Assembly: GCA_965366625.1 (NCBI GenBank)
Contig: CBDUGP010000022.1
Span: forward strand, 21,165 to 85,164
DNA from: an uncultured bacterium
GTDB taxonomy: Bacteria; Acidobacteriota; Thermoanaerobaculia; Multivoradales; J023
Length of the DNA: 64,000 nt
Direction: 5' to 3'
Shown: one piece after another, positions 5,918-48,211 of the stretch
Position numbering within the stretch: position 1 is the first letter of the stretch
Layout of the letters: the number at the start of each line of letters is the position of its first letter
The notes under the pieces: generated by a model
What the model was told of the DNA's origin: nothing
Databases searched by the model: none
The model's input: the letters and a program-made list of their open reading frames with translations, nothing else
Position numbers and translations under genes: made by a program

Positions 5918-5918
5918 A

Positions 5919-12301: not shown

Positions 12302-12342
12302 TTCCCGATCGACACCCCGATCGACAATAAGGCACCCCAGCC

Positions 12343-12383: not shown

Positions 12384-12412
12384 CGGGCAGAGGGAAGTCG
12401 TCCGCTGGGTCT

Positions 12413-20726: not shown

Positions 20727-20876
20727 GACCCAGGCGAGTGGTCGGCCCTGCTTAGAAAAGTTTCCAAGAATCCCCGCCAGCTACAGAATTCGCCGCTCCG
20801 ATTGCGTCTAGGAACTAGTAGTGACCCACCAGTGTGTCCACTGGTGACTACAAAACCTCGACGAAGGAGCGAAGCC

Positions 20877-23237: not shown

Positions 23238-24296
23238 TCACTCATAGGCGGCTTCGACACTCCGTCCGCCACCACCATTGAGCCAAAGTCGGGCATGGGC
23301 GCGGACGGTGCCTTCATGGTCGACCCAGGGTGCCTCTAGGTAGCCTTTTCCATATCGATCCCCGACTCGGAAATAGAAAAAGACGGGCTCTGTCGTGGTC
23401 CCCAGCTCGAGGAATTGGGAATAGCCGTCGGCCGGGGCTTCGAGCATCGACCGCAGGGCAGCCCGTGGACCTGTTTCCGCGGGAAAGTGACGCGTTACAC
23501 CGCCGATGGAAGAGAAGTCGAGGGTCGCGCCGACCGGGCGTCGATGGACCGGGGCGACCGGCACGTTTTTAGCGCGATTCTCCGTCACGTCGACCAACGC
23601 GGCCTTGCCGTCGGCTGCGGTGGTTGTGGTTAAGCGCAAGACGAAGGGATCGTCTTGCCCGGCAACTTTGGCCGGCAGATCCCTCAGCCCGACCACACGT
23701 GCCTTGCGGTTGCGAGGGTCGAGGGCCAAGACCGCAGCCTTTGAGGCGTCTCCCGCCACCAGCTCGCCTTGGACCGCCTGCAACTCCACCGGATTCTGAA
23801 GCGGCCGCAAGGTCACCCGCAGACGGGTTTCGTCGACCCTATTGCTCTCCGAAGTGGCGACGGCGAAGTTCAACGTCTCGCTGCGATAGCCGTCCTTGCT
23901 CAAACGAACTCGCACGTCCGTACAAGGACTGCATTGATAACGAAAAGCGCCCGTGACTTCCTCTTTGTGGCGAGTCGACACCCGGAGTTCCGGTCTTTGC
24001 GGGTCAAATGAGCCTTCCGTGACCGACAAACGCACGCCTGCCAGGGGACGTCCCGTGGACGCGTCGACCACGGCGCCGCCCACCCGGATCTCACCGCTGA
24101 GCTTGCTTTCCAGGAGCTCCCGAACCGGAGGCAGTTCGGGAGGAGTCTGTGCCGACAGATAAGACGGTGCCAGGCACATGACCCCTAGGCACATGACCAC
24201 CAGGCACATCCATGCCCTATGAGCGGGTGCCAGGCACGTCCTTGCCAGGCACGTCTTTGCTAAGGCCACCATCGCAATTTCTTTAACCGTATTCAT
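23238..24296 (-). CDS. Exported protein with a carboxypeptidase-regulatory-like domain; candidate immunity/partner protein
   Basis: Starts 3 nt after the giant ORF stop, with a GGGAG RBS. The signal peptide is built from repeat-derived CLA(R/P)/MCL units. Domain block VGGAVVDASTGRPLAGVRLSV...VRVRLSKDGYRSET. Confidence 0.78.
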   Translation of the reverse strand: MNTVKEIAMVALAKTCLARTCLAPAHRAWMCLVVMCLGVMCLAPSYLSAQTPPELPPVRELLESKLSGEIRVGGAVVDASTGRPLAGVRLSVTEGSFDPQRPELRVSTRHKEEVTGAFRYQCSPCTDVRVRLSKDGYRSETLNFAVATSESNRVDETRLRVTLRPLQNPVELQAVQGELVAGDASKAAVLALDPRNRKARVVGLRDLPAKVAGQDDPFVLRLTTTTAADGKAALVDVTENRAKNVPVAPVHRRPVGATLDFSSIGGVTRHFPAETGPRAALRSMLEAPADGYSQFLELGTTTEPVFFYFRVGDRYGKGYLEAPWVDHEGTVRAHARLWLNGGGGRSVEAAYE

Positions 24297-24299: not shown

Positions 24300-27200
24300 T
24301 TACTCCCTCTCCCTTGGCGTCTGCCCCGGCACCTCGTAGTACCACTGATAAATCACCGGGAATCCCGACGTCTGGAAATCACTGTGCCCGTAGAAATCCC
24401 AATTCAGATCCGTGGCATCCACGTTATTCGGCGTCATCACGTTTTCCACCGAGCCGGCCGGAATCAACAGCTGGGTCGCTTCATAAGCCACGCGAATCAC
24501 GTCCGGAAGGCTGGTGGGAATGGGGCCCCGCTCCGGTAGACGGGGGCTCATCATGGCCGGCGAATCGTTCGACAACGCCGGCTGACCCTGCCCGGCCACC
24601 GGAGCGCGCCAACAAGTTGGCGAGCCTTCTTCGCGGTCGTAATGGACCCAGGGATTGCGTTTCGCATAGTCGTCGATGCGCATCAGCTCGAGGGCATAGT
24701 CCTTCCACGCCCAGCTGTGGACTAATTTGGTGGCCGATTCTTTCGTGCTGTGTTGCTCTTGATTGAACCAGAAAGTCCAAGAGTCACAACGTAGATCGTC
24801 TTCGTCGTAAGTGATCGGAATTCCGTAGAGGTCGGGGATACCGCCGACGCCTCCGCTACCCCCCAGCAGACCGTAGGAATACGGCTGCTGCGGCCAGAAG
24901 ACTTCCTGCCAGATGGCCGGCTCCACGGAATAGAGGTTGCGGAAGAGGATGCCCGAGGTATCCACCGCGTGCTGGCGCAAGGCGTCGTAGACCACTTGGT
25001 TGCCCAAGCTGTGGGCCATGACGTAGATATTCTGCGCCTCACCCCCCCACTCGCCGACGATCTTGTTCTCGATCAGCTCGCGGAAGCTTTGGGACGATCG
25101 GAACGAATTGTCCACGTTGTCGATGTAGGAGATCGGCGCGTTTTCGTCGCCTTCCCAGGTAAAACCGACCACGTTGCCGCGGAAACCCAACCAGAACATG
25201 CGTTTGGTCACGATCTGGAAGGAAGCCTTGGCACCTTCTAAGTCGACGTTGAATCCGTGCACCGGCATGAAGTATTGGGTCTTATCCGTGTCGGGCATGG
25301 CGGTGCCAGGCACGTGTTCAGCTTCCGGATACAGGAAGTGGGGAATGGTGTTCACACCCCCGCCCGCATCACACGACGTCTCCGGATGGCATTCGGTTTT
25401 GTAGTTGGTGAATCGGGCCGACGGCGAGCCGCGCGCCGACCACAGGGAGAAGAAATGATTCAGATGCTCCAGGGTCATGCGGATCGAATCCACCGTATGC
25501 CAATCCGACTCGCCCTTCTCCCGTGAGAGCAGATTCATCTGCACTTCGTGGACCGTGTCTTCGCTCGCAAACGGATCCACCCGGAATAAATATCCCGTTT
25601 TGGTCTCGTCCGGAGTCAGCTCCAGCCGTTCGTGGGAGCGCAGCACGTAGTCGACGGACATGGACGCGCTATAGGAGAAGATTCCGCCGCCGAAGAAACC
25701 GCCGATCAAATCCTCGGCCACGTCTTCCCTCGACAAATACTGCAAACCTTCTCCAACGGCGTTCAGAGGAGCTTTCCAAAGCTGGATGTCGACGTCCCGG
25801 CTGGTGTCCACCAGCTGCAAGGTGAAATCGAACCCCTCCTCGATCAACGGTGCCGGGATCTGCAGGTGCAAGGGCGACAAATCGTCGATATTGCCCATGT
25901 TTACCGCTTCCGAATTGGCCGTGTTGGAGGTCCAGAATCGGTAGCCGTCCCCTTGATCCTCCATCATTTCGTCGTATTCGTCGATCGTCCAACCGAGCCC
26001 GTCGGGCACACCGGGGCGGATGTAGTTGTAGCCGCCACCGCTGCCGTCGCTGCTGTTGTTGACGGCGAGGTTCGCTTCCACGGGCGTGAAACGAATGGTT
26101 TGCTCCGCTTCGGACCCCTCAAAGGTCAGCTTGACGGTGACGTCGGCGGTGACCAACTCGCCGCCCGCCTGGGTGCCGTTGAGCGCTTCCACCCACACCT
26201 TGATGGTTTCGTTGCCCGGGCCGAAATTAAAGGTCGACGCGCTGTACGGGGTGCCAGGCACGATGTACAGATCCGGCTCTTTGCTGTCGCTCTGATTCTC
26301 GATCCGCCACAAACGCAGGATTCCCTGCTTCTTTTCGGTGAAGTCGTAATAGCTGTGACTGCCCTTGGTGCCCAACAGCCTGCCGGTATTGTCCGGCAAT
26401 TGCGAAGCCGGCGGACCGTCGTACTCGAAGGTCAGGGTCGCGGCGCCCCAATTGCCTCCCTCGGGCCGCAGCTCGACCATCAGGGGTACGAGGTTGTCCT
26501 CGTTGTCGACCTGTTTGTCGGCATAATCCGGGATCTGATCACCGCTCGCCGAACCGTTACCGTCGTCGTTGTCGTGGTTGACGTAGACGAATTTGCCGTA
26601 GCCTTGGTCGCCGTCGCCTTCCTCGATCTCCTCTTCCAAATCGTCCCGCTGGGGTTCGTCGATGTCGTCGTCGTTATTGGAATCGGCGTCGATATCCAAT
26701 AAGGCAATGGAGAACGGCTCCGGCTCCGACATCACCGTTAGCGGCACGTCGACGCCCGCCCGGGGCGACCACACCCAACCCACGTTGAGCGCCATCAGCA
26801 CCTCGTGATCGCCCTCGGGATGGTCGAACATCTCACCCTGAGGCAGCGTCGCGGTGCCATCGCCGGTGCCGTCGGTTTGGGCCAAGAAGGGAATCGTGCC
26901 GTCCTCGACGAAGAACATGTAGGTGTTGAGGGCCGGGTAATTCGACGGCTGAATTTGATAATTGAAAACCGTATCTTCTTCGTGATTGCCGTCGTGGCCG
27001 AGCAGAACCACCGGCGTGGGCGTGGTGACCTGGCCGGTGACCGACCACAACACGTACGTCGACCGCCAATTTTCGTCCGACACCTCTAAGATTTCGAATT
27101 TGCCGCCGCACAGGGGATCCTCAGTGCAGGGCTCCACCGCCTCGAAATGGGACGCATCGTCTGGGATCACCGGTACTCCGACCCAAGCGGTCGGTGTCGC

Positions 27201-30200
27201 CGTAATTTCATAACGGCCCGGCGTCGACGGCAGGGGCACGGCGTAGGAGTAGAGGCCGTCGCCGTCGGGGCTGCTGACCGTGGCACCACCACCGGCACCG
27301 TTGAAGGCGATCTGGACCCGTTCGTCGAGGGTGCCGCCGCCACAGCTGTCGGGCAAACATTCCGGTGCCGGGCTCTCCCCCAGGCGGGTGGCTTTAAACG
27401 TTCCCAGGGGCACGCGACAATAATCTTCGCCGCAAGCCTCGACTCCGAAGTCTTCGCGCACCACGTGCACGTTGACCTGCAAAGGAACCGACGTTTCTCC
27501 GGGCGGGTAGGCTTCGATCGAACCGACCCCTTCACCCCCCGAAGGTTGGCCACGTCCGGACACCCGCAGAACCGGGAAACCTACGAAGACCTCGCCCGGC
27601 ACCCAATCCTTGCGCACCTGGCCCGTAAAGCTGACCTCCGCGGAGCCGCCGTCCTCGCCCGTGGCGCTGGCGGTGACGGTGTAGGAATCATCCTCCCCGA
27701 GCACCAGCCACGCCCACACGCCGCTCACCCCGCCGTCGTCGGTGACCGTGGTGCCCGCACTGCACTCGCCCGCGATCACCGTGCCCGGACGACAGCCGAG
27801 CTTGTCCTCCCGGCTGATCAACTCCGGACCCTTGCCTTCGCCACCCGGACTACCGTTGAGGGTGAAGACCACGTCTTGATTGGAGATCGGATTGCCGTAT
27901 TGATCCACCGGCAGGGCCAAAACAGGGGTGCCGAGGCTCAAATGGGGCAGACCGTTCAAGGTCTGACCGTAGGGTTGCTCGAGGTCTGCCACCTCATCGG
28001 GAGCACCGATGGCGTAGAAGAGGTCGGGCACCGCATGGCCGTTGACCTCCACCGCCACCACGTTGAGGCCCGCCCGGGTGGAGTGATCCTCTTCCGGGAA
28101 GAGCAAATAATACGGACTCTCGTCCGTCTTCGTGCCGAGGGTGAAATCCACCGACGCCAAACCGGTCGAATCGCTGACCACCGAGCCCGACGCCGTGCTT
28201 CCGCCGCCGGTCAAGACCGTGAAGGTCACCTCGGCCCCTTGAACCGGCACCTGGTCGACGTCGAAGACCTCGACTTTGAAGGCGATGTAATCGCCGTCGC
28301 TCAAAGTTTCGCCAACCGTCGCCAGCTGTAAGTTGCCGTCGAAAATCTTGCCGCCCACCGCCTCCTCACCGCGTCGGTTCACCGGTCCACTGTGGGGTCG
28401 GCTGAGGGGCACCCGTGTGCCTTCCACCACCTCGAACCACGGCACCGCCAACATGCCGCCGGAGAGGGTTCCTGAAATCTGGTAGCGACGCTCGCCCGTG
28501 AGCGGGTCGAGCAACACATAACCGACGCCGGTCCAATCGACGAAGGACATGGCCTCGGCCGGCACCAGGGCTTCACCGCCGGCCAGCACCCAGCCTTCGA
28601 TTTCGTCGAGCACCGCTGAATCGAAAGGCAGGGTCGGCAGGAGGGTGCCCAGATTGGCGCTGTCGATGCGGTGCACGGTGATGCCGCGATCCGCGGCCAA
28701 CGCCAACGCCAGATCCGCGCTCATGGCCGCCATGCCTTGGACCTCGAAAAGCTCGCGCTCGCGCGCCGACGCTTCGAGCTGGGTCAAGGCCAGCCAGCGG
28801 CCGGCGACCCGCCGATCCTCGGTCCCGCCGTCGCCCACCAGACGTCCACTGTGGATGTCCGCGTCCACAAAGACACTTTTATATTCCAAGGATTCGATCA
28901 GCCCGAGGCTGCCCTGGGGCTCCACCAGACTGCCGACGGTCACCACGCTCGGCCGTGGGAAGACCCGGGTCAGACCTTCCAAGCGCGCCATCCGTGCGCC
29001 AAAATCATCCACTGCCGAGAGATAATCCGAAGCCATGGCGGCCAGCAGCTCAAGGGTATTTTGCGGCTCGCCGTTCGGCGGTGCATAAGCTTCCGCCCCG
29101 GCGCCGAAACCCAAGCCGGCGGCAATGCCGGCGCGATGATCGTTGACGAAGCTGGTGCTGCCCACGGTGGGTGAGGTGAGGGTCATTTCGAGCTCGAACG
29201 GCCTGCCCATGGCGATCGGCAGGCTGGCCGGCACCAACGGCTCGCCATCGGTACGCAGTTCCAGGCGTACGTTGACCAAATAGGGCGGCGTATTCCACAG
29301 GCGATGACCGTTGGCGGCGACGATCTGCTCGTCGGCGGCCGTGGCCGGCACGTACCAAAGGGTCGCCTCCTGGCCGGAAAGATCCGCCACCGGCACCGTC
29401 CGGTCGAAAATCACCCGACTGCCGTCCCGGGCCCGCAGACGCACCCGATGGGTCAGGCTGTCGGCCAGGTCGAGACCGAAGCCGTCGACCCCCAACACCA
29501 CGCCCACCATGCCCGGCGGCAAGACCTCGCCTTGTTGTTCGGCCAACAGCTCAGGTGCGGTGACCTGGGGATATTGGCCGGCACCCAAATATCCGTCCAC
29601 CTCTTGCTCGACCAGCGCGCTGGGCATGGGACATGCCCCCGCCTGCTCCAGGGGTCGGGAGCAGACGTCGCCCGCCAAATAGCTGTCGAAGAAAGCGTCG
29701 GCGTCGAAAGCCATTTGATCCAACAGCGGATCGGACGCCACGGATCGGTCGAAGGTTTTGAGCTGGGGATCGAGGGCCAACCAGGTGGCGCCGCTATCGT
29801 CCAAGACCACGCCGCGGTAATTGGCGTAGGGCAGATAAACCTCGGCCCACACCCGATCCAGCACATAGGCGACGGGACGACCGCCGGAGATCACCGGCGA
29901 CCAACCGATGCCCGCTGCGGTCAACACCCGTTCGAGGGCCGGCACGTTGGCAGCACCGAAATGGTCGAGCAAAGCGGCGGTCGGGATCTGCTGAGGACCC
30001 CATGCCAAGCGAGCCGGGAAACCCGCCAGGCGCATCAACTCGGCCAACAGACCGGCTTGGTCGGCGTCGTTGCCTTCGCCGGAGCGCAACACTGCCTCGG
30101 GGCCTTTGATGCCACCGTAATAATGACCGGCACGGATGTCCTGCAATACAAAGTTGTAAATCGCCACCGGATCCCCGGCCAACTCCACCACCTTTTCCGC

Positions 30201-30896
30201 CAAATAGTCGGGTCTGACGATCTCCGCCTTGCGGAACCTCAGGCTTTTCTCCTGGGTTTGGACCCGACGTTTGCGCGCCACCGCCGTGGCTTCGATCAGC
30301 TCCGAAGACGGCTTCGCCAGATAACCCTCCGGGAAGGCTCGGCGGTCCGAAGGCGCACGGGCCACGAGCGCTTCGTCGAATTTCGGTGCCAGGCGAGATG
30401 AGATCGGCGAAGCCTCCCGCGACCCACCCGCACAGGCCAACAGCTCGGACAACTCTTGGGAGCTGAGGCTCGCCTTCTCGCCAATCGCCCGTTTCAGCGC
30501 CTGCAGCTTCTCGCCGGCGGACTGCTCGAGTTCGTCCAAGCGCGAGTCCACGTCACCTCCCGCCCGCGCCAGCACCTGCCGTTGATGGGCCAGCTCCTCC
30601 TGCCAGATGAATTCCTCCAGCAGTAGCTCGCGGTCCACCGCCGAGCTTTTGGTCGGCAGGGCGTCGAGCTGGGCCTGGGCCATTTTCGCCAAAGCCGGGA
30701 AATGGCCGTAACACGACTCACCTTGCGCTGCCGACCCAGACTGGGTCGCGGACTGCGCTTGGAGGGGCGAGCCCAAGCCCGGCCACACGGGCAAAAGGGC
30801 CAACCCCAACCAAACCCAACCCTGTGACGGATAACCCTTGGACGGATCACCCTTGGACGAACGACGGGCACGTCCGCCGACGGAAGACTGACTCAT
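24300..30896 (-). CDS. Possible separately initiated 2198-aa protein inside the giant ORF (transglutaminase-like + acidic Ca-binding-like + alpha/beta-hydrolase)
   Basis: In-frame ATG at 30896 preceded by GGAG at 9-nt spacing, then a signal-peptide-like stretch (GRARRSS...WVWLGLALLPVWPGLGSPLQA-Q). Confidence 0.5.
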   Translation of the reverse strand: MSQSSVGGRARRSSKGDPSKGYPSQGWVWLGLALLPVWPGLGSPLQAQSATQSGSAAQGESCYGHFPALAKMAQAQLDALPTKSSAVDRELLLEEFIWQEELAHQRQVLARAGGDVDSRLDELEQSAGEKLQALKRAIGEKASLSSQELSELLACAGGSREASPISSRLAPKFDEALVARAPSDRRAFPEGYLAKPSSELIEATAVARKRRVQTQEKSLRFRKAEIVRPDYLAEKVVELAGDPVAIYNFVLQDIRAGHYYGGIKGPEAVLRSGEGNDADQAGLLAELMRLAGFPARLAWGPQQIPTAALLDHFGAANVPALERVLTAAGIGWSPVISGGRPVAYVLDRVWAEVYLPYANYRGVVLDDSGATWLALDPQLKTFDRSVASDPLLDQMAFDADAFFDSYLAGDVCSRPLEQAGACPMPSALVEQEVDGYLGAGQYPQVTAPELLAEQQGEVLPPGMVGVVLGVDGFGLDLADSLTHRVRLRARDGSRVIFDRTVPVADLSGQEATLWYVPATAADEQIVAANGHRLWNTPPYLVNVRLELRTDGEPLVPASLPIAMGRPFELEMTLTSPTVGSTSFVNDHRAGIAAGLGFGAGAEAYAPPNGEPQNTLELLAAMASDYLSAVDDFGARMARLEGLTRVFPRPSVVTVGSLVEPQGSLGLIESLEYKSVFVDADIHSGRLVGDGGTEDRRVAGRWLALTQLEASARERELFEVQGMAAMSADLALALAADRGITVHRIDSANLGTLLPTLPFDSAVLDEIEGWVLAGGEALVPAEAMSFVDWTGVGYVLLDPLTGERRYQISGTLSGGMLAVPWFEVVEGTRVPLSRPHSGPVNRRGEEAVGGKIFDGNLQLATVGETLSDGDYIAFKVEVFDVDQVPVQGAEVTFTVLTGGGSTASGSVVSDSTGLASVDFTLGTKTDESPYYLLFPEEDHSTRAGLNVVAVEVNGHAVPDLFYAIGAPDEVADLEQPYGQTLNGLPHLSLGTPVLALPVDQYGNPISNQDVVFTLNGSPGGEGKGPELISREDKLGCRPGTVIAGECSAGTTVTDDGGVSGVWAWLVLGEDDSYTVTASATGEDGGSAEVSFTGQVRKDWVPGEVFVGFPVLRVSGRGQPSGGEGVGSIEAYPPGETSVPLQVNVHVVREDFGVEACGEDYCRVPLGTFKATRLGESPAPECLPDSCGGGTLDERVQIAFNGAGGGATVSSPDGDGLYSYAVPLPSTPGRYEITATPTAWVGVPVIPDDASHFEAVEPCTEDPLCGGKFEILEVSDENWRSTYVLWSVTGQVTTPTPVVLLGHDGNHEEDTVFNYQIQPSNYPALNTYMFFVEDGTIPFLAQTDGTGDGTATLPQGEMFDHPEGDHEVLMALNVGWVWSPRAGVDVPLTVMSEPEPFSIALLDIDADSNNDDDIDEPQRDDLEEEIEEGDGDQGYGKFVYVNHDNDDGNGSASGDQIPDYADKQVDNEDNLVPLMVELRPEGGNWGAATLTFEYDGPPASQLPDNTGRLLGTKGSHSYYDFTEKKQGILRLWRIENQSDSKEPDLYIVPGTPYSASTFNFGPGNETIKVWVEALNGTQAGGELVTADVTVKLTFEGSEAEQTIRFTPVEANLAVNNSSDGSGGGYNYIRPGVPDGLGWTIDEYDEMMEDQGDGYRFWTSNTANSEAVNMGNIDDLSPLHLQIPAPLIEEGFDFTLQLVDTSRDVDIQLWKAPLNAVGEGLQYLSREDVAEDLIGGFFGGGIFSYSASMSVDYVLRSHERLELTPDETKTGYLFRVDPFASEDTVHEVQMNLLSREKGESDWHTVDSIRMTLEHLNHFFSLWSARGSPSARFTNYKTECHPETSCDAGGGVNTIPHFLYPEAEHVPGTAMPDTDKTQYFMPVHGFNVDLEGAKASFQIVTKRMFWLGFRGNVVGFTWEGDENAPISYIDNVDNSFRSSQSFRELIENKIVGEWGGEAQNIYVMAHSLGNQVVYDALRQHAVDTSGILFRNLYSVEPAIWQEVFWPQQPYSYGLLGGSGGVGGIPDLYGIPITYDEDDLRCDSWTFWFNQEQHSTKESATKLVHSWAWKDYALELMRIDDYAKRNPWVHYDREEGSPTCWRAPVAGQGQPALSNDSPAMMSPRLPERGPIPTSLPDVIRVAYEATQLLIPAGSVENVMTPNNVDATDLNWDFYGHSDFQTSGFPVIYQWYYEVPGQTPRERE

Positions 30897-33800
30897 GACT
30901 TCTCGCTCCAATCCAACCTCGGTCTGCCGGCTCACCGCGTCCCGTCGACGCAGGATGACCGCGCCGGCAAGGGCGAGCAGCACGGTCAACAACATGAGCA
31001 GACCCGGGCCGAGGGTCGGTATTTCCAAACCGGCGCGGACTTCGACGTCCGCCCGGGACAATTCCAAATCGTAGGGCACCCCGCCGAAATCGCCGGCCGC
31101 GTGCAGCTCCACCCGATAGGTGCCAGGCACCAAGTCAATGGTGTCGAAGCTGTGGATCAGCACCACTTGATCGTCCATCGGCACGGTCTGCACCACCACA
31201 AGGCTGTCGATCACGGCACTGGTCTCGGGATCCACCAACAGCAGGCTGAGCTGAGCGTCCGGCAGGTCCCCGGTGCTCAGGTTGCTCACCTGGGCGTCAA
31301 CCTTCAACGGCACGCCGACGAAGACTTCCTCGGGCAGATAAAGCAGACCGCCGACATCCAAGCCACCTTGGGCCGTGACCTCAAAAGCCACCGTGACCGT
31401 GGAGACGTTGCCGGCACAATCCGTGGCGCTCAGCGCGAGCACGTGATCGCCGACCGTGTCCACCACCAGCGGGCTGCTCACGGGCTGACCGTCGAGCAAG
31501 GCAGAGGAGACCGTGAGGTTGACGTCGAGCATCGTCCATTGGGCGGTCACGCTGGTTTCGTAGCTCCCGCCCTCCACCACACCGTCGACCGTGATCTCCG
31601 GCGCCGTGGCGTCGAGCAGGAAGGAACGGCTCGCGGTGGTGCTCAGTCGACAGCCGTCGACCGCCAGCAACTCGAAGAGGTGCTCGCCGTCGCCCACCAC
31701 CGGCTCCCCGGCGACGTAGGTCAGGCCGTCGAGGGTGGCGACCACCGAATCCAGCTGTTGGTCGTCGGCAATCCAAGTGAAGGCCGCCGAGCTCACGCAG
31801 GCACCTTCCGCCGGACCGCTCAAGTCGAGGGTCGGCGGCGTATCGTCGATCGTCGGCAAGAAGTCCACCGCCACACCGGTGCTGATGTTGTTGACCGTAT
31901 CCTCGGCGAAGACCTCGACCCGATAGGGATCCAGGCGATCCGGATCGATCACCACCCGCGACGAGAAGATCTCGCTCTCCACGCTCTCCCGGGGCAGCGG
32001 CAGGTCGTGGTCGGAATCGTCGAGATGGAAGAAGACCCGGAACACGCTCGACAGCTCGTCGATCGCTCGCACCCGAACCAGCATGGACTCGGAGCAAACG
32101 ATCTCGGTAGTCGGTTCCAGCAGGTCCACCACCGGCGGCGTGCGGTCGACCAACAACAAGCTCGACGTCGCCAAAGGCTCTTCCACGGTGCCACCCACCT
32201 GTGCCGCCGGTCGCTCGGCGGTCAACGACACCAAATAGGACTGCAAGTAGGACACGCTGAGGGGCACGTCCCAGGTGAAGGGACGGGATTGACCGGCGCC
32301 GAAGGAAGTCGCTGCCGCCTCGGCGTGGCCGACCACCGCATTGCGCACGGGATCGATCACGTCCACCTTGACCACCACATCGTTCAACGGCGCGTCGCCG
32401 AAGTTTTCCACCGTGGCGGTGATCGTGAACGGCCCCTCGTCGGGTTCGGCGGAGACCGGAGCCACCGCCACGCTGCCTTGCAGCTCGGCGCCGGCGGCGG
32501 TGATCACGAATCCGACCGGCTCGGAACTCGCCAGCTCCGCGCCCGGCTCGTCCACCACCCGCGCGGTGAAAGCGTAGTTGCCGGGAGGAATCGGCGAGGT
32601 ATCCAGAGCCCATGGCGTGGGCAACAGATCCCCCACGGGCAGGGCGATGACCGGCACGGAGGTGCTCGCCACCTCGGTGCCGCGGGCGATTTCGAGGCCC
32701 GAAACCGCCACCACCGTCAGCTCGACCGTGGCGTCCCGCAGGGTCGCGTCACCAATATTGAGCACCCGGGCCAAGAGGTTGGCACCGGCGCCCCGGCGGT
32801 AAGTGGGACGATCCGTGGAACCGGTGACCTCGGCCGCGACCCGCGCGCCGACGGTGAAGGCTGCGCTCGCCCGCGCCGCTTCGACACCGGCTCGCTGCAC
32901 CGTCACCACCGCCTGGTAGTCGCCGGGGTAAATCCCCGACACCGACCAGCCCGAATTCGTGACCCGGGTTTCGTAACCGAAGGTCTCGTCCTGCCAGCTG
33001 TCCACGTCGGTGACCCAGACGCCGTTGGCATCTTCAATGCTCAGGGTCACCAAAGTCGGCGCCGGACCGTCGTTGACCGTCACCTGTGCAGTAATCGCGG
33101 CGTTCTCGCCCAAGAAGTAGGCCGGCCGGTCGGTGGCGATCTCGGCGTGGGCGCCGAGGGTTTCGCGCACCGGAACCACCATCTCCTCAACGTTGTTGGT
33201 TTCGTCGAGCTCCACCAGCAGATCCGCCGGATCGAGCACCAGACGCCAACGGAAGTCGCCCTCCTGGCCGGTGGTATCCCACAAGAATCGGACCCGACGG
33301 GTTGCGCCCGAAGCCAGGTCAAAGGTCTCGCTGACCACCACGTCGGAAGCCCCGGAGGGTGCCGTGCGGATCAAGCTCGCCACCAATCCTTCGAGTTCCA
33401 CGGCTCCGGCATTGCGCGCCACGCCGTCGATGGCGACGGTCGTGCCGGTGACCGGGAAAGCCGGGGTCGCGGTGATCGATCGAACCTCCGCGTCACCAAA
33501 GGCGTCGGGGTCGACGATCACCTCGATCGGCAGGCTCTCTTGCACATCCGCCCCGAGCTCTTGGCGGGCGACAAAGGTATTGGTGCCCACCGCCAGCTCC
33601 ACGTCGGGCAAGACAAAGGTCCCGCTGGGCTGGAAGCGGCGTTGCAGCTGTTCGTCTTGGGTCAGCCACAGGGCACCGTCGTCGGTGCGCATCAGGTCCC
33701 AAGGACCACCGTCGCCCCACGGCAAGGCGTAACGATCCAAATCCGCCGCCAGCACGGTCTCACTGCCATCGATCATGGAACGGGTCTTCAGGCTGAAGAG

Positions 33801-36800
33801 GTCGCTATCGACGGGATGGATCTCGAAGTAGGCCAAGGTCCGATCGTCGAGCCAGACTGCGGCAAACTCGCCATCGGCCGCGCTCACGTCTTGAACCAGG
33901 CCGGTTTCCAAGTCCACCACCTTGAGCCGCGCGCCCTCCACATAACCGCCCGGCTGGGAATAAACGAAGCGGCTACCGTCCGGCGAGAACGGTGAGGAAG
34001 ACATGCCCAGGCTGTCGTAGTCGCCGACAAATTGGGCGCCGCCCTCCACCAAGTCGATCACCAAGGGTTGGCCATAGTAGAAAGCGGCCACCAAGAATCG
34101 GCCGTCGGGGCTTTGGGCCAAGTGGGAGATGCTCGAATAAGACTGGAATAGGACGGTTTCGGCACCGCTTCTCACGTCTCGGTAAAGCACCTGGGTCCGG
34201 CCGCTGGAGTCGTCCTCACCCACTGCGAAGAGGGTTCGGCCATCGTGGCTGAAGCGCGCCGAGCTATAACCCCCACGGGTGGTGAGCTGGCGCACCGACC
34301 GATCGGCGAGATTGGCCGAGAACAAATTCCAACCGTCGTTCCAATCCAGGAACACCAAGGTTTGACCCGACGGATCCAGAGCCGCTTCGTAAGGCTCGTC
34401 ACCGAAGAAGGTCCAGGTTTCACCGCTGTCGAGATCCACCACCGAAACGCCTTCTTGACTGCCGTAGCTGTCGAAAGCGATGCGGCGCTGGTCGGCGCTG
34501 AAGGACACCGCGTTGTAGTCGAAGTCGTCCAAGGTCACGGTCGACATCGGCTGTGCGGCGGGCAGCATCAGGACACCCACGTCCAGGCCGTCCCGGAAGA
34601 GGGTGACCAAGGAACCCGGATAGGCCCGTCCACCCACGTCGGCGATCGGCACCGGCCAAATCACCGGCACTCCGGCGATCGTCGGTTCGAGCAACTCGGG
34701 AGCCGGCGGCGTGGTGCATTCGGTGGTCGCGTCGGCGACGTTCGACGGTGCGGATTCCACCTCCAGGCCGCTTTCGAGAGCCAGGGTGGTCAGGCGGTAA
34801 TGGAAGGTCGCATCAAGACCCAGGCCCGAATCCACATAGGCCAGATCCGAACTCGACGGCATGGCGATCGGCGCGAATACCGTGCCGTCGGCGCTGCGAT
34901 ACAAGCGGTAACCCAATAACACCGGCGGCAGCGGCGAGGGCGCCTGCCACTCGAGATCGATGGCGCCACAGGCACCGGCGGCCGCCAGCAGACCCGTGGG
35001 CGGGTTCGGCGGATCCGTGGACACCAGGGCAATGGCGTTCGACGGCTCGGAGAATTGTCCGAAGCGGTTGACCTCCAAGGCCGAGTATTCATGGGCCCCG
35101 GAGGCGACCCCGGAATCCACCTGGGGCGGCGCCAAGAGATCGAATCCGATCAGGCCCACTTCGGCGATCGAGCAGCTCGGGCAGTAGTAGCTGCCCGGCG
35201 GAACCGAGACCCGCACCCCCTCCACCGGCAGGTAGAGATCTAAGTAAAGGTTGGTGGAGCTGTTGTACGAGCGGTAATACCACCACAGCCAATGGCCATC
35301 CACCAAGACCTCGACGGAGAAGCGGCGGGCGTAGGACCCCCAACGCAGATTCATCTCGGTGATCAGCTTGGGATCGGCCCAAGTCCACTGCCAGACCGTG
35401 CCCGCGTCGATCGTGTCGGTGTCGGGCATCCAGGACGTGCCCGTATCGCCGTCCACCGCCCGCAACCAATCCGCGTTATCACCGCCCGAGGCGGAGAGCA
35501 CATGGCCACCGGCCCCGTCGTAGGGATAGGACGCCGGTGGGTCCATCAGCGGCGTGCCGTCACGGTCGAGGGCATAACCGAAGCTCACGGGCTCGCCGGA
35601 CTCCGTCCAATCCACGGTGACGTCGGCGCCCGCGGCGATCGCGGTCATATTCGCCGGCGGTGTGGGACGGGGGTGCGAAACCAAAACCAACTCCCGCGAC
35701 CAACGGCTGCGGTTGCCATCGGAGTCCTCACCCCGATAACGCAAAGTGTTGAAGCCTTGGCTCAGGCTGACGGTCGGGAAGGTGACGCCTTCGAATTCCG
35801 ACGCAAATGCAGCCAGGGTCTGCCAGGTATCCGGCGCGACGAACCGCTGCAGCTCGATGGACTCGAAATAACGCTCCGAATAGCCGTTCAAGCTGCGACC
35901 CGGCGACTCGGAGATCGGGTCGACGAAATCGAAGGTCGGCGTCATCACCACGCCGTTGCGCCACGGCGACGCCGCAGACTCGTTGTCGCCCTCGTCGATG
36001 GCGGTCACTTGGTAGTTGTAATAACCGTCGGCCAAGCCCAGGTCGTCATAGGTCAGCTGGGTCAGCGGCAAGGCCGTCGGGGTCAGCAAATCGCCGCCTC
36101 GGTAGACCAAATAACCCGCTAAGTCGCCATGGGTATCGGGCACCGCGGTCCAGGTGAGGTGAATGTCCCCACCGTCGACCCGCACGGTCAGCTCCGCCGG
36201 GGACGGCGGTGCCAAATCGATTTCCGTCAGCGAAATGCTCTCCGGCGCGGGATCGGGTCCAAGGGCATCGGACGCCACCGCACGCAGGTGGTAAAGGCCC
36301 GAGGTGGCCGGCGCAAAGTCCATGACGTAAGGCCGACGGCTGAGCGCGGGTCCGAGGGGCAACCAATCGGTGGTGCCGTCGGCTTGGACCTCAAATTGCA
36401 CCGATTCGACGTCGAGATCCGGGGTTTCGGCGGTCAACAGCACCGATTCCTCGAATTCCGTGCCGTCCGGCGGATCGATGATGATCGCGTGGGGGCGACG
36501 GGTATCGATGGTGATCGGATCCGACTCGTTGGACGCCGCGGACTCGTTGTCCGCAGTGTCCGCCGCAGTGACGAAATAAACGTAGGTGCCGTCGGGCAGA
36601 TCTTGGTCGTCGTAGGCGGTGCCGTCGATCAAGAACGGCTCCTGGCTGCCCACCACCGGGCCGGGGGCGTTGGCCAACAGGCTGTTGCGATAGAGGTAAT
36701 AACCCGCCAGATCCGCCGGCGCCGGATCGAGCATCCACTCCACGTGGATGTCGTCGGTGACGCCGTCACCACCGAGGATGGTGGCCGCAGCGAAGGTGAG

Positions 36801-39800
36801 CACCGGAGCCACGGGGGCCTCGTTGTCCACCTCGACGTTGATTTGGGCCGTGGCCCGATTGCCGAAGATGTCGTCCACCTCGAGCTTCAGGTCGTAGAAG
36901 CCGTTGGGGAATTGGGGCAAGGCCGTATCCCACTGGCCGAGCTCGTCCGCCAACACCGACGCCGAACCCGAATTGAGGGGTTGCCAGGCACCGGCCGGCG
37001 CCGAACGTACCCACAGGCGCCACACCGACAAGCCGGTATCGCGATGGGCGGTGCCGAAGATCTGCACCAGATCCGAGATTCGATCGCCATCGCTCGGCAC
37101 GCTGATGTGGGCCACCGGCAGATTCAAGTTGATGGTCGCGGTCAGCGCATTCGAAGGATCGCTTTCGGTGCCGTTGGCCACCAACGCGGTCACGGTATAA
37201 ACGTAGGAGCCGTCCGCCAACGCCGGATCCACCAGGGTGGTGCCGACGATCGGACCGGCGATCTCTTCACCGTCGCGATAAACCAGGTAGGCCGAAGGCG
37301 CCGGGCCGGCCCCCGCTTGCCACACTAGGGTGACATCGCGAACGTTGGGCTCCGCCGACAGCAGAATCGGCGGTTGGGGCGGGGCCACCGACACGGTCAC
37401 CGACACCGAGGTTTCCGACCGGTTGCCCGCCCGATCCTCGGCCTCCAATTCGAGGCGATACTCGCCGTCCACCGGCAGGGCCGTCCACGGGGCCAGAAGC
37501 CCGGCTTCGTTGGCGGCGCCGGCGGCGATCGGCGGTAGCAAGTCGCCACCCTCGGGTTTCAGGTTCAACACCCAGCTGAGCATGTTGGCGTCGTCCACGG
37601 CGCCCAAGACATCCGTATCGTCGGCGATCACCGCGCCGTCGAGCGGCAGGTCGATCGACACGTCGGGCGGCGTATTGTCGACGGTGAAGATCCGACGCAC
37701 CTCCGCGGTGCGTCCCGGTTCGTCGGTGGCCGACAAACGCAGGGTGTAGGGGCCATCGTCCAAGCCGGAGGCATCCCAATCGAAGCTCACCAAGCCGTCG
37801 GCCGGCAAGAGGTTGTCTTCGGCCAAGGTCATGAAGTCGCCGTCGTCGGGCATCGCGCCCGGGGCATAGCTCCAGACGTAGGAAACCAAGTGGTCCTCGA
37901 TGACCTCGCCTTCGAGGCCCAGGGATTCGTTGATCGTATTGATCACCGCGCCGCCCTGAGGTTTGAAGATCTGCACCGCCGGCGCCGTATTGTCGATGGT
38001 GAAGATCACCGACTTTTGGGCCGAATTGCCGGCCGCGTCCACGGCGCTAAAGGTCGACAAATACTCACCGTCGGCACGATTCGTCAGCTCATCGAGCACC
38101 CGGCTTTCGAATACCCCCGAGCCCGTGGCGATCGGCTCACGATCGCTTTCCAAGCTTTGGAGATCGAGATTCCAGGTGTCCGGGTGCAGCTCGTCCTGGG
38201 AGCCCACCACTTGCAGCGGCAGACCCGACAAGGAATTCGGCCGCGGGCTGATGACTTCGAGCGCAGGCGGCACGGTATCGACGATGATCGATAGGCGCTC
38301 TTCCTCCGACTCCAGGGTCGGCGGCACCAGCGGATCCTCCGCCAGGATCACCAAGGTGTAATCGCCGTCGGCGACCACCGCAAAGGCGTCCGAGATGCCG
38401 TCCCACAGCGCGTGGATGCCGTCACCCACGGTGGCCGCGCCGGCTTGCAGCTCGCCGTCGGTCAGGGTAGCGACCACCAGATCGTCACCGTCGACCACGG
38501 TCAGGGTGATCAGGGCGTCCTGGATCAGCTCGTATTCGATCTCCACCTCGTCGAGCACGCCGTCGACATTGGGCGAGAAGAGTTCGGGCTCGCGCATGAA
38601 CCGGCGGATGAAGTTGCGCGGTCTCAGGGTCACCGGAATCTCAGAGCTCCAGGCCTCATTGCCCGGCTCGTCAAAGGCATAGACCCGCACCAGATATTCA
38701 CCCGGGGGATGGCTACCTGTGTTCCAGGTGCCTAAACCTTGTTCGGGTCCCGGCACCTCACGACTGCTGCCGGCCACCGGCTGCCAATCCCCGGCGCCGT
38801 CCAACCACAGGACCTGGAGCTCGAAGCGCTGGAAGTTCTTGTCGGTCACGCTGCCGAAGAATTCCAGGCTCGAGCCCACCAGCTCACCGCCCTCCGGCGA
38901 GCTCAGGGTCACGGCCGGTGGAGTTTTGTCGAGCTCGAAGGGCAGGCTCTCGGTCTGCTCAGCGCCACAGGGGGAACGGGCGGTGACCGCCGCCCGATAG
39001 ATGCCGTCGGCAACGTCCAAACCGCCTAGATCCGTGCCGTCCCAGGCAAAGAGCAGCTCTTCAACGCCGTCGGTACCGCCAGGCGGATAGGACTTCAGCA
39101 CCGTGCCGGCGGTGTCGGTGACCTGCACTTCGTAGGTTCCGGGGGTGCCGGTGGTGAAGCCGATCTCAGCGACGATCGGTCGACCCAGGCCGTTCACCGG
39201 CGAGAAGATCTCCGGATCCACAACCATAGCGATATTGGGCAAGTCCGGGATGATCACCGGAATGCTGGTGCACGACGCGTTGCCCGCTTGGTCCACCAGG
39301 CGAGCGGCGAGGTCGAAGGCACCGCTGCTCAGCTCATCGCGCTCGATTTCAAAGCCGGTGGCACTGGAATAGGGCGAGCAGAAATGGTCGCTATCGACAA
39401 GGCGCTCACCTAGGAAGATGCGGTGATTGGCCGAGCCCACCTCCTCCACGTCCAGGGTCACGTCGACCGTCAGGTCCGACGGACAAATCACCGATTGGGA
39501 GAGCGGCTCGGTGATCTGCGCCACCGCCGGCGTACGGTCGATTCGCACATTGAAGCTTTGGGGGCAGGTGCCCAACAGACCGGGCTGATCGACGTAGGTA
39601 TAACGCTCGGTCAGCTCGTGGTTGCCTTCTCCCAGGCTCGAGAGGTCGAGGCTCTGGCGGTAATCCCAGGACAACAGCGGCCCGTCGATCGTGACCCGTG
39701 GCACCCCGTTCACCAGCAGCTCGTAACGCTGCACGAGCGCGCCGGTCGGGTCCACGGGCACACGGCCGTCCACCGGTGAGGCCTGGCCGGTGGTCACCCA

Positions 39801-42800
39801 GTAGTTGGGGAACGCCGGTCCGGGATCACAGGGCGCCTGATCTTCTTGACCGAAGAATCCTCGGCCCAGCTGCGACGATCCGTCGGCAGCGCACGTGGCC
39901 GGGAAGTAACCGCCGAACAAGCGGCTATAACCTTCGCGATTCTGGATGCCCGTATTGAGGGAGATCGCTTCTTGACCCAGGTCGCCGGAGCCTTGGGCCC
40001 GCACCAGACGGTTGCCCAAGGGCACGAATACGCAGCCGGTGCTGACCTCCACGAAGTCGCCCGGCAGCAGGCGATCGATGACCGCGTAGCGTTGCTGCCA
40101 ATAAACATTGCCGAATTGATCGACCTCGCGGGTCGCCAGCTGGATCGAGCGCACAATGCCCGCCGACGCGTTGGTGACCCGGAACCGATCGCCGTTTTCA
40201 TCCAAACCGAGGTATTCGATCAGCAGCGGCACCTCCGGTCGGAAGAGCACGGGATCGCTGATCACCTCCACACCGCTGTCGCTGCCGGCCCGCAATCGAA
40301 CTTCGTGGGACACCATGGACAGGGTCGGATGGTTCCAATAAATCGCCGACAGACGGTCGCCCACGGTCACCGGACGGTCCGCCGTGGCGTAGGAGACGTC
40401 GGTGGTCCGGAATTGGCGATATACCGTGTCGTGGGAGACCTCGATCTCGCCCGGCTGCCAAGGTCCGGAGGGCAGGCCGGTCAGGCTGATCGGACGATAT
40501 TCCAGCCGCAGATCCGAAAGATCCGACTGCACCGTGCTCTGCAACAACAAGGTGTCGTAGAAGGAACTGAGGATTTGATCCTCACCCACCAGGAAACCGG
40601 TGGAGTCGCCGATGGCTCCCAATGGCGGTCGCTCGGGGTAGGCGCAGGGAGGATTATCCGTGCGACATCCCGGCTCGGAGTCGGTGAAGACCAGACGTTC
40701 GTCGCGGAAACCGCGAGCGGTGATGGTTTCGTTGCCGGCCATATCCCGGGCGATGATCCGCCGCTCCGAGCCCACCAATTGATGCGCCCCGACCACTCGC
40801 CAGGCGAGGTCGCCATCCTTCTCGAGGGTTTCGGTGCCCAGGGACTCCGTCGCCCACTCACCGTCGCTGTGGCGACCAAAGCTCTGATATTGCCACTCTT
40901 CGAGATTGTCGTCGCGCACCGCGGCGAACACCTCGTTGATCCACAGGTCTTGATCTGCCGGCTGCTTGTCCCCCGGGATTTCGACCGCCAGGTGGGTGTC
41001 GGCGAATCTCAACACCACCTCGGGCGGCGTATTGTCGACGATGATCGGCCAGGTGGCAGCACCGTAGGTCAGTAAATATCGACCGTCGGGCACGGGATTG
41101 CCCGCGTCGTCGTTGCCGTCCCAGGTGGTGGTTTTCGGGCCGACCACATCGGCGGCCACCGGCAGCTGTCGATAGACCACGCCGTTCGAATCGGCAATCG
41201 CAAAATCCAGATTGGCCGGGCGCAGCACCGAGTAGTGGAAGACCAGCTGATCCTTGACTCCGGGGCTGGTGCGCGGCGACATGTAGCGGTTTTCCGTGTA
41301 GAGATTGGCGATGTCGCGGTCGCCGTTCCACACCACCCGCCGCCATTTCGCACGCTCGTTGCCGGCTCGATCCCGGGCGGTCAAACGCACTCGATAGGTG
41401 CCGTTGGCGGGCGGCAGCCAGGTTCCCCACGACTCACCGAACAACAGCTCGTTGCTCGGCAGGCCGATCGGCTCGTAAACCAGCTCGGGCGCGTTCAGAT
41501 CCGCGTATTCCAAGCGGTAGTTGTCCATGTAGCGGTCGGTGGCCAGGATCCACAAATCCACCCCGGCATCGCCGAACAACACCCTCGGCTTGAGCCTCAC
41601 GGTCAGATTGGCGGCGGGGGTGAAATAGGCCAGCAGACCGTCGAGCTCGTAAGCCGTGTCGAGGTGGGCGACCAAATATTTGTCGGTGGGTGACCACACT
41701 GCCCGATCGAGATAGAAGGGCAGCTCACGGGTCTCGCCGGAGCGCCAATCAACCAAACTCTGAGGCCGGAAGCCGCCTTCACCCTTGGTGGAACCCTTGG
41801 CAGCCGCCGCTTCGGCCCAAGCCCGGTGGCGAGCCTCCACCTCGGGATCGTCGATCAGCAGGCGAGCAGGTCGGCCGAAGCGGCCGCTCGTTTCGGAATC
41901 GGCGCCCGTACCCCCGGCGCCCACGCAGCCCAGTCCCGCGTCGGCTCCACAACCGTAGTACTCCTCGCTCATCGCCACCACGAAGCCGTCGTTGGACACA
42001 CTGGTCACCGGCGGCGGCGCCCACCACGGACCTTGGGTTTCGATGCTGCCCTGTTCGAGCTGCTCGCCGTCTTGCAAGCCGATCACCAAAATATTCAGAT
42101 CACTGCCGCCATAACCGCCCTTCTGCAAACCTTGGGCGCCATCACCGAGAGCAGAAGGAATGATGCCCTTCTGGCCGGCCGTAACAGACGAGGAAGACGT
42201 AGCAGACGGGGAAGACGTGGCAGACGGACTTGAGTCCGCCCACACCACCCGGAAATTCTCGTCCGCACCTTGGCCTCGGGCTCGGCTTTGCCCTGCGCGG
42301 CCTCCCGCCCCGTAATAACCGTAACCTTCCGACGACACCCAAACGAATTGCTCGGCGTCGAAATCAGTGGCGGTGTCTGGTCCTTGGTAGAGGCTCACAC
42401 CCACGGCCGACTTCGAACCTTCGTCCGCCGTGGTCACCGAAGGAATCTCGCCGCCCCCACAACCGCCGTAGTTGTCGGTGCCTTTGACCTCCACCGTCGG
42501 CGGATCGTCCGAGCCTTCCGGTGCCAGGGAAATATCGTAGAAATAGCTTTCGCCCCAATTGACGCCCACCACCACATTGGCGCGATGGTTGTGGGTCCAA
42601 TCGATGGAATATCCGCAGGGGTTGTTGCCGCTGTAGAACCCGGCGTCGAATTCGAACGGGCTGCCCGGGTTCTCCAGATCCTGGATCATCAAACGATCCT
42701 GCCAATCGGAAGCCCATACCACCCACCGGCCGTCCGGGGACAGCCACGGGTCGAGCCCCACCTCGTCCGGCGGATCGAGAGGTTGGATGAGGTTGTCGGG

Positions 42801-47072: not shown

Positions 47073-47677
47073 TGATCTCCCCCGGTCTCGTCCGCTTGTC
47101 CGTCAGAGCCGTTCTCCGGCACCTCGACTTGGCGCGGGGCCACCAAAGGCGCAAAAGCAACCCCCGACTCGCCGTCCGATTGGCCTTGCCCAGACCCGGA
47201 GTTCACCTTGCCGCTGTCCTCGGACCAAGGTGAATAAACCGTCTCGTGGTCCAACAGCTCCGGACCCACCGCCCGTGGAATTCGGGCCGAAAGCACGGTC
47301 ACCGTCACCTCACCGTCGGGCCTCTTCTCAATCTTCACCAAGCGGTCGGGGATCGGCACCGCCGCCTCGGACGTCGAGCCGGGGCCGGATCCCTTCGGTC
47401 CTTGGATCAGGATCGCGTGTCGATCCGTGATTTCGAGCACCCGCAAACCCGGCTGTCCAGGCACCGCGTCACCCTTGCGCAGGACGTGGAAAAGCTCACC
47501 GCTTTGCACCACCACCTTGCCCTGGGGAAACATACAGCGAGCGACCTCAACACCGGGAAAGTGCTCGGAGAGTCGACCGACGACGCCAGTGTCGGCGACT
47601 GGGTCGGCGAAACTCGGCAACGAAATGAGGGTACAGGCCAGGAAGACGACTAGGCAGGGGTACGCACGGACGGACAT
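47069..47677 (-). CDS. Exported hypothetical protein, first gene of the giant operon (weak PilP/GspC-HR-like segment)
   Basis: Start re-called at ATG 47677 (GAGGAG RBS), with a signal peptide. Its TGA overlaps the giant's ATG (ATGA). Segment VVVQSGELFHVLRKGDAVPGQPGLRVLEITDRHAILI. Confidence 0.65.
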   Translation of the reverse strand: MSVRAYPCLVVFLACTLISLPSFADPVADTGVVGRLSEHFPGVEVARCMFPQGKVVVQSGELFHVLRKGDAVPGQPGLRVLEITDRHAILIQGPKGSGPGSTSEAAVPIPDRLVKIEKRPDGEVTVTVLSARIPRAVGPELLDHETVYSPWSEDSGKVNSGSGQGQSDGESGVAFAPLVAPRQVEVPENGSDGQADETGGDQ

Positions 47678-48211
47678 GGGGAGGCTCCTCGCGGCGGACA
47701 GACCGCGGACACACGGGAATCCCAGCACGACCCGCGTTCGCGAGGTTCAACGGACATTCAGACCAGGGCGGTCGGCACACATTGAGCCGCGATCGGGTTT
47801 CGAGCCGAGATCGGAAGGGACTCGGGACAAAATAAACTCGCGATTTCTGGCCCTGCCGCTTTTTTACCGAGTCGACAAGCGGTCTCCTCAATGGGGTCAG
47901 CAGGGGTAAAACTGACCACCGAGTCAACGCGCTTGGCGGGCAAGGGCCAACAGAGTCATAGACGAAACCGAAGGGAGACTTTACACAGACTGCCGCATCT
48001 TGGCAAGTATCTCCCCATCTACATGTCCACATAGGATCGGCAGATCAGTGGATCTGATCACTTTGCATCCGAAAAAGCGAAAGCTCTTCCGGCAGAATGC
48101 CGCACCTCGACGTACCCTGCTCACTCACAGGGTCCATCGCCCTACCCTTCTGACTTTACCCAACGGACAACTTTTCTAGACAAGGAAACCCACCCTCGGA
48201 GCAACAACCCA

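Follow-up and report, generated by a model that had tools for sequence, protein, structure and literature searches.

A clade-conserved gene fusion in Acidobacteriota places a sorting tag and a putative signal peptide inside a probable polyprotein of 7,590 residues

The subject of this study is a giant open reading frame (ORF) in a 64,000-nt stretch of DNA from an uncultured member of the Thermoanaerobaculia (Acidobacteriota; assembly GCA_965366625.1, contig CBDUGP010000022.1, positions 21,165 to 85,164), hereafter called the window. The ORF (24300..47072, minus strand; 22,773 nt) encodes 7,590 amino acids and appears to join two genes for secreted proteins, with a sorting tag and a signal peptide lying in its middle. 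Judged from the sequences compared, this fusion is genuine, in frame and evolutionarily retained, and export probably divides its product again into the two proteins from which it arose. We consider it reasonably likely that the fusion, which is conserved in a clade, gives a polyprotein that would be exported as a hairpin and resolved by signal peptidase, with or without an enzyme acting on the IPTL tag. A polyprotein would be the expected consequence of the fusion, not an alternative to it, and is plausible and with precedent. Coordinates and strands refer to the whole window and residue numbers to the 7,590-aa ORF, all features of which lie on the minus strand.

The predicted protein begins with a Sec-type signal peptide, recognised as a hydropathy segment (residues 1-29, 46986..47072; MMRLRALSVSLLLCLLLFGLNVGQMAAAP...), and continues with a surface scaffold of ~5,350 residues rich in immunoglobulin (Ig) domains, an internal sorting tag, a loop, an internal signal peptide and a module of ~2,150 residues that is transglutaminase-like and ends in DUF900. 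Both parts have Pfam matches: long arrays of CARDB, FlgD_ig, Big_13 and Big_3_3 upstream, and Transglut_core, Big_1 and a C-terminal DUF900 in the downstream 2,198 residues. The ORF list and translation contain no in-frame stop at the junction. A pseudogene was considered and rejected on account of the 7,590 open codons and the conservation of both halves.

The junction (residues ~5350-5440) reads ...VRAGLE-IPTL-GPGLLMLLTVLLALAGAVIL-RRR-DAVSRQTEVGLEREV-M-SQSSVGGRARRSSKGDPSKGYPSQG-WVWLGLALLPVW-PGLGSPLQA↓QSATQSGSAAQGESCYGHFPAL..., where the arrow, here and below, marks predicted cleavage. An earlier note on this DNA, made from the letters alone, had described an IPTL motif with a transmembrane (TM) helix and an Arg cluster, then 15 codons, a GGAG-preceded ATG at 30896, the lack of a stop and a TGA in the +1 frame, and each of these elements was found where it had placed them. 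The tripartite tag (EIPTL, a hydrophobic helix of 20 residues and RRR) occupies residues 5350-5377. Its IPTL signature (residues 5351-5354, 31011..31022) directly precedes the helix TM1 (GPGLLMLLTVLLALAGAVIL, residues 5355-5374, 30951..31010), a predicted stop-transfer segment of N-out/C-in orientation, and the RRR cluster (residues 5375-5377, 30942..30950) closes the tag; in split relatives, described below, RR is followed by two residues and a stop. On a Kyte-Doolittle scale with a 19-residue window (KD19), TM1 is the strongest hydrophobic segment of the whole protein (maximum 2.50), and across the 7,590 residues only three segments exceed 1.6, of which the IPTL helix and the signal peptide at the N-terminus are strong and the third (707-725) is marginal. 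Between RRR and the in-frame ATG lie 15 codons (DAVSRQTEVGLEREV), and the +1 frame holds two TGA triplets, one within GCG GTG AGC (30932-30934) and the other within the ATGA at 30893-30896. That ATG (M5393, 30894..30896) is a possible internal start and has a GGAG Shine-Dalgarno (SD)-like motif 9 nt upstream (30906..30909). It is the only one of 74 internal ATGs with GGAG at -17..-5, and a similar SD precedes 13 of the 22 gene starts in the window.

The same ATG begins the internal signal peptide (residues 5393-5439, 30756..30896), which by inspection has a basic n-region (MSQSSVGGRARRSSKGDPSKGYPSQG, net charge +4), a 12-residue h-region (WVWLGLALLPVW, 30783-30818), a c-region (PGLGSPLQA) and a predicted signal peptidase I site, LQA↓QS. 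This is the composition of a Sec-type signal peptide (charged n-region, h-region of 7-15 residues, small residues at -1 and -3); its location is not N-terminal, since the segment starts at residue 5393, and it would become N-terminal only if translation also begins at ATG 30896. A lipoprotein signal was rejected, there being no Cys at +1 of LQA↓Q. We do not regard the pattern at the junction as chance, because of the hydropathy result, the sole GGAG-ATG and the recurrence of the same arrangement at the homologous position in four relatives.

An origin for the second signal peptide was apparent from the family to which the downstream module belongs. When its first 858 residues were used as query, an exhaustive HMMER search gave 3,707 homologues, and among the listed matches that reach this region, except P0006 and P0008, the module begins close to the N-terminus of the protein itself. 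Inspection of the 11 closest of these N-termini showed classic signal peptides throughout, nine of which run directly into a C-x-x-[HR]F motif: CGGHFPLL, CSDHFRQI, CLSHFPEL and similar sequences directly follow the signal peptides of P0007 and P0009-P0021, and CYGHFP follows LQA↓Q in the window. By comparison with the standalone relatives, CYGHFPAL (30690..30713) marks the mature N-terminus of this family. Because these relatives start with a signal peptide followed by the same motif, the internal signal peptide is, by homology, the N-terminal signal peptide, kept after the fusion, of a secreted family whose members otherwise stand alone.

Two loci, L008 and L009, are split exactly at the junction of the window. 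In them the homologue of the downstream module (P0007, 47% identity; P0009, 44%) immediately follows a giant gene, which it overlaps by 4 nt on the same strand, and is a protein of 2,231 or 2,356 aa with an N-terminal signal peptide. The upstream proteins end in ...APAP-IPDL-GVLGRLLMVMLLAAAAFVVL-RR-VA-stop (L008) and ...VATA-IPDL-GRFGQLLLALLLAVGGLALL-RR-QA-stop (L009), the upstream TGA overlaps the downstream ATG as ATGA (GCATGAGT and GCATGACT), and the AGG Arg codons provide a GGAGG or AGGAGG SD sequence. The earlier note had proposed two ancestral genes of about 5380 and 2198 aa fused by a small indel, and had suggested looking for homologous loci split at this point; L008 and L009, with their ATGA overlap, are such loci, their split point and sizes bear the proposal out, and the IPTL-TM segment, whose lack of conservation would have spoken against it, is conserved in the homologues.

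The overlap itself suggests how the frames merged. When the overlaps of L008 (GCATGAGTCGG, M-S-R) and L009 (GCATGACT) are set beside the window (GCGGTGAGCCGG, V-S-R), the window's ...AVIL-RRR-DA-V-S-R... (GAC GCG GTG AGC CGG) corresponds to ...RR-VA-stop and M-S-R in L008 (GTC GCA TGA GTC GG). Removal of one G from the window would give ...ILRRRDA-stop with a GTGA overlap, parallel to ...VLRRVA-stop and ...LLRRQA-stop, and a GTGA overlap is present in L012. The GTGA at 30932..30935 is thus a probable remnant of an ancestral overlap between a start (GTG, now Val5380) and a stop (TGA, now in the +1 frame); on this short alignment, the out-of-frame TGA is likely to be the fossil of the ancestral stop and the frame merge a single inserted base. 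In the more distant loci L006, L010 and L012 the pairing of a giant gene with a transglutaminase gene is kept, the two abutting or overlapping, and none of the three giant proteins carries a membrane tag; the giant gene of L006 is collinear with residues 2814-5317 of the window protein. The most economical history is that of a coupled operon whose giant protein gained an IP[TD]L-TM-RR tag, followed by the frame merge at the overlap.

The same in-frame junction was found in four other independent assemblies. A Thermoanaerobaculia metagenome-assembled genome (MAG), Co_bin.310, is 83% identical to the window in the downstream module; its junction spans contigs L001 and L002, which overlap by exactly 97 nt at a linker repeat of 165-nt period, a multiple of 3 that keeps the frame at any copy number. 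An Acidobacteriota MAG, P01_H01_bin.49 (locus L003), has the junction EIPTLHPVALLLLAALLAVAGVAALGQRPIDSPMNRRPGRGGRAMRARQKARRGRGSRWMAGLVWVLGLGG...AAWA↓QG, the 7,614-aa protein P0006 (JGI) has EVPMLDPGMLLLLTLMLLTAGFLQLRRLSSTASRGSKMKLFLFFLAALSLWPAEARA↓GTCDERFP, and P0008, from a Holophagales MAG, has EIPTLGPWTLALLTLLLTSAGFVVLRRRQVGDRISMMHDLHRHPGRRAGFLVLPLLLFGQTALPTGAEA↓EAP. P0006 and P0008 were compared as proteins, and the DNA-level comparison therefore covers three linkers. A neighbour-joining tree of the downstream module (743 aligned columns) unites the five fused sequences in a single clade (bootstrap 93/100) and places the split pair P0007 and P0009 as its sister (joint clade 96/100), and the fused state has been retained through divergence to ~45% identity. 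Scans of metagenome contigs with alignment A1 and with the P0006 junction found nothing, nor did a scan of genome contigs for the P0008 junction.

Comparison of the five junctions separates conserved from free elements. The motif before the helix is IPTL in three of the four fused relatives and VPML in the fourth (IPDL in the split relatives), and each of the five proteins retains an AXA-type site (LQA↓Q, LQA↓Q, AWA↓Q, ARA↓G and AEA↓E). Between tag and h-region lies a loop, of 44 residues and net charge +5 in the window (30819..30950), which is poorly conserved yet open and in frame in every one of the five; the loops range from 14 to 159 residues and from +5 to +14 in net charge. Even between the window and its 83%-identical relative, TM1 and the second signal peptide are conserved and the linker is unalignable, the nucleotide alignment with Co_bin.310 being too gapped to place individual frameshifting indels. 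In that MAG, a perfect 127-nt repeat of 165-nt period (L001 10621-10912 and L002 1-130) broke the assembly exactly at the junction. The repeat unit encodes AVGPQRR-ASSSLLALLGPW and looks like a degenerate version of the genuine second signal peptide, GVGPQKYWKGFGLGLALLSVW; the signal-peptide region may thus have been duplicated in tandem within the loop.

These relatives bear directly on whether the single frame is an assembly or sequencing artefact, which the earlier note had offered as one explanation. Were it so, the true sequence would be GCG TGA and the window would hold two genes, ...ILRRRDA-stop and a GTG-started gene, as in L008, L009 and L012; indeed, the deletion of one base recreates a perfectly formed split arrangement with its GTGA overlap. 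Four other independent assemblies, however, are fused at the same place with differing local sequences and fall in one clade with the window, and the site (GACGCGGTGAGC) contains no homopolymer longer than 2. We therefore regard an indel error as highly improbable, and the assembly-error explanation does not survive the finding of five independent assemblies that share the in-frame junction.

A polyprotein, which the earlier note had also proposed, would fit the conservation of the tag, the positive charge of the loop and the AXA-type site, and the following sequence of events can be put forward. In the ancestral operon a giant Ig-rich surface protein ending in IP[TD]L-TM-RR would have been followed by an ATGA-overlapping gene for a secreted transglutaminase-like protein, and a one-base frame merge just before the overlap would have joined the two ORFs in the window's lineage. 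Ribosomes starting at 47072 would make one chain of 7,590 aa, because in the absence of a stop codon every ribosome that translates the scaffold would continue into the downstream module. The N-terminal signal peptide would start Sec export of ~5,350 residues, the IPTL helix would stop transfer (N-out/C-in), the Arg/Lys-rich loop would remain cytoplasmic and the retained signal peptide would re-initiate export of the last ~2,150 residues. Signal peptidase I would then cleave after LQA5439, and an IPTL-type sorting enzyme, if present in this lineage, would cleave at the tag, giving the same two mature proteins as the split operon in a fixed 1:1 ratio. The loop is predicted to be cytoplasmic because it is net positive in all five proteins, as the positive-inside rule predicts. 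The fusion may have been tolerated, and both signals conserved while the linker evolved freely, because cleavage would regenerate the proteins of the split operon.

Whether the second hydrophobic segment is cleaved or retained in the membrane distinguishes this scheme from an uncleaved two-pass membrane protein, in which both ectodomains would stay permanently anchored to the inner membrane by a hairpin of the tag helix and the second segment. A positive-inside loop between two hydrophobic segments is compatible with such a hairpin. We read the second segment as a cleaved signal peptide, however, because its h-region is short (12-14 residues) and is accompanied in all five fused proteins by helix-breakers and a conserved AXA-type site, as in cleaved signal peptides; moreover, it is homologous to the N-terminal signal peptides of standalone relatives. 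A permanent anchor consequently seems to us a poor prospect.

The conserved GGAG-ATG at 30896 may also permit separate initiation of the downstream module, and this raises a further alternative, that the fusion is real but the cell still runs two genes. The module would then be made mainly from this ATG, with an ordinary N-terminal signal peptide, and read-through from upstream would be a tolerated by-product or would be resolved in the same way. Consistent with this, ATG 30896 stands alone among the internal ATGs in its GGAG spacing, Co_bin.310 has the same GGAG-9nt-ATG, and a Met opens the second n-region in four of the five fused proteins. However, there is no stop codon, so the fused chain would be made regardless; in addition, the conserved Met of Co_bin.310 lies ~140 residues before the h-region, which would make a poor N-terminal signal peptide and would be harmless internally. 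We think predominant separate initiation unlikely, and prefer a polyprotein that is resolved during export.

Several points weigh against the polyprotein. We infer the membrane topology, the signal peptidase cleavage and the cleavage of the tag alike, and separate initiation of the downstream module would explain the conserved SD-ATG just as well. In Co_bin.310 the junction consists of two contigs that we joined ourselves at 5x coverage. The five fused sequences possibly go back to one ancient event, and their persistence could be neutral rather than selected. No IPTL sorting enzyme or sortase-like neighbour was found in the window, and to our knowledge no sorting enzyme has been identified for the IPTL-CTERM class. 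Finally, the earlier note's assignment of the tag to IPTL-CTERM holds for the motif, the helix and the Arg cluster, but the window scores 17.1-19.0 bits with the corresponding model, TIGR04174, against a cutoff of 20.5 bits.

The class of the tag was nevertheless consistent across the relatives, in that, of the sorting-signal models, TIGR04174 scores best on the window and on four of the six tags tested from relatives. L003 (21.1 bits) and P0008 (23.8 bits) pass the cutoff, L009 (18.6), Co_bin.310 (17.7) and P0006 (13.7) score lower, and the tag of L008 gives no match. The IPTL-CTERM family is defined mainly in Proteobacteria. The tag resembles that family in its IPTL signature, its hydrophobic helix and its Arg cluster, and differs from it in that the motif varies (IPTL, IPDL, VPML) and the tag is internal here: 2,213 residues follow it in the window, whereas it stands at the extreme C-terminus in the split loci L008 and L009. 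No other tag-bearing ORF was found within the window. A second model, NF033207 of NCBIfam ('midcut-by-XrtH protein'), is of interest since its name points to proteins cleaved at an internal signal of the exosortase type, and positions 32-68 of the profile align with the tag region of P0008 at 33 bits (window, 16 bits). As all scores are below the cutoff of 45 bits and the tag segment alone matches, this is a resemblance of signal type and not family membership; the term 'midcut-by-XrtH' was not found in the literature searched.

The question of whether the fused state has been selected was approached through the linkers. If unconstrained, the three linkers compared at the DNA level would be expected to hold ~2.8 in-frame stops, and none was seen (P ~0.06 by our own estimate); selection for the fused state appears weakly supported. 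Selection would make the hairpin a covalent coupling device that enforces 1:1 stoichiometry and a co-localised assembly of the scaffold with its effector-like partner: the 2,150-residue module would reach the same translocon right after the 5,350-residue scaffold, and two different membrane proteases would resolve the chain. We put this forward tentatively, and on balance doubt it.

Sorting tags function when placed in the middle of a protein (PMC11980579), and the closest parallel is MXAN_5598 of Myxococcus xanthus, likely a two-gene fusion with an internal MYXO-CTERM, whose unfused counterparts TraA/TraB are encoded by overlapping ORFs (PMC11980579). Both proteins have a large N-terminal part (adhesin-like in MXAN_5598), an internal tripartite tag and a second functional part, and unfused relatives with a C-terminal tag and an overlapping next ORF, the hallmark of an MXAN_5598-type fusion, exist here in L008 and L009. 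MYXO-CTERM differs from the present tag in its invariant Cys, in having a known enzyme (myxosortase) and in belonging to another phylum; for the window, split sister loci and a fused clade are both documented. In Haloferax volcanii, an ArtA substrate whose PGF tripartite signal is not C-terminal undergoes, according to the title of the report, ArtA-dependent processing (Abdul Halim et al. 2017, cited as reference 46 in PMC11980579). As far as that title and citation go, it shares with the window a tripartite signal away from the C-terminus, an experimental precedent that position is not critical, and differs in being an archaeal Tat substrate in which PGF-CTERM is paired with an archaeosortase. 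Internal sorting tags that stem from gene fusion already have precedents in MXAN_5598 and HVO_0405.

Polyproteins resolved by signal peptidase offer a second comparison, in that one ORF yields two mature proteins through cleavage of an internal signal peptide that lies behind a stop-transfer helix. The Bradyrhizobium FbcH cytochrome b/c1 precursor is a polyprotein resolved at an internal signal sequence. The structural polyproteins of the Flaviviridae are likewise resolved by signal peptidase at internal signal sequences (PMC7601889). These are viral or respiratory-chain proteins, in contrast to the window protein, and have no sorting tag.

What sets the present case apart is that the split and fused states are both visible in sister lineages, that a putatively cleavable signal peptide stands right after the tag and that the protein is of exceptional size. 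It offers a natural, phylogenetically resolved instance in which a 'C-terminal' sorting tag and an 'N-terminal' signal peptide have persisted in the middle of a protein in five lineages after fusion, and it supports the idea that both signals work wherever they are placed. It also suggests that fusion of translationally coupled genes for secreted proteins may be nearly neutral, as the export machinery would cut the products apart. In annotation, such giant ORFs should not be 'repaired' as frameshift errors. The compact cassette of tag, loop and signal peptide may serve the study of internal cleavage, and the extension of IPTL-type tags to Acidobacteriota may aid the search for a sorting enzyme.

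In the downstream module, the transglutaminase-like core (29766..30167) matches PF01841 at 37.2 bits against a cutoff of 23, and P0007, P0009 and P0010 also pass the gathering cutoff. The sequence GEGNDADQAG (30057-30080, residues 5665-5672) is invariant in this core in three aligned close relatives, and those further removed still share GNDADQA; the fold could be a variant one or inactive. The C-terminal domain (24954..25292), a variable 'cargo', is a DUF900 alpha/beta-hydrolase domain with an AHSLG nucleophile-elbow motif (PF05990, 34.6 bits; cutoff 20.5). The C-termini of the family vary (RHS/DUF6531 in P0013, DUF900 in the window), and because the homologue in L012 (GCA_025490955.1, gene 6001-16056) has a C-terminal RHS / YD-shell / DUF6531 region in place of DUF900, the family would seem to behave like a polymorphic effector scaffold with exchangeable C-terminal domains. 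The 'toxin-like cargo' of the earlier note finds some support in this variation. Sequence searches of the PDB with the C-terminal 520 aa and with the transglutaminase-like core gave nothing useful, the core search being empty.

At its other end, the giant ORF has GGGGAG upstream of its start ATG, which overlaps, as ATGA, the TGA of a 219-aa ORF (47069..47728, minus strand) with a signal-peptide-like N-terminus and no family match; translational coupling thus seems to span the whole operon. Near the N-terminus of the giant protein a HELGH motif (HExxH, zincin-like; residues 207-211, 46440-46454) lies in a region without a Pfam match and is followed at residues 460-560 by a prenyltransferase/squalene-cyclase-like repeat. 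A gene for a secreted protein of 352 aa (23238..24296, minus strand), 3 nt downstream of the giant ORF, is a conserved third gene of the operon, and its product has a weak CarboxypepD_reg match. By tblastn it is directly downstream in L002 (71% identity), L003, L008 and L009; gene calls likewise place a gene at this position in L008 and L009, and 346-aa genes at the same position in L010 and L011.

Elsewhere in the window, two paralogous ORFs (20802-21818, plus strand, and 55865-56812, minus strand; 45% identity over 308 aa) flank the giant-gene region in inverted orientation. Neither has a Pfam match, and one of them has a sub-threshold match to a REP-associated tyrosine transposase (NF047646, 46.5 bits; cutoff 80). 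A three-gene cluster on the minus strand (50591-55586) encodes VWA-domain, TPR and acidobact_VWFA proteins, the last (53796-55586) matching TIGR03436 at 140 bits. This match fits an Acidobacteriota origin of the window, most likely a Thermoanaerobaculia-like genome, given that the closest relative found, Co_bin.310, is a MAG of that class. On the plus strand at 5267-10305, genes for an ECF-type sigma factor and an anti-sigma factor (zf-HC2) precede a 275-aa ORF and an 892-aa TPR-CHAT protein.

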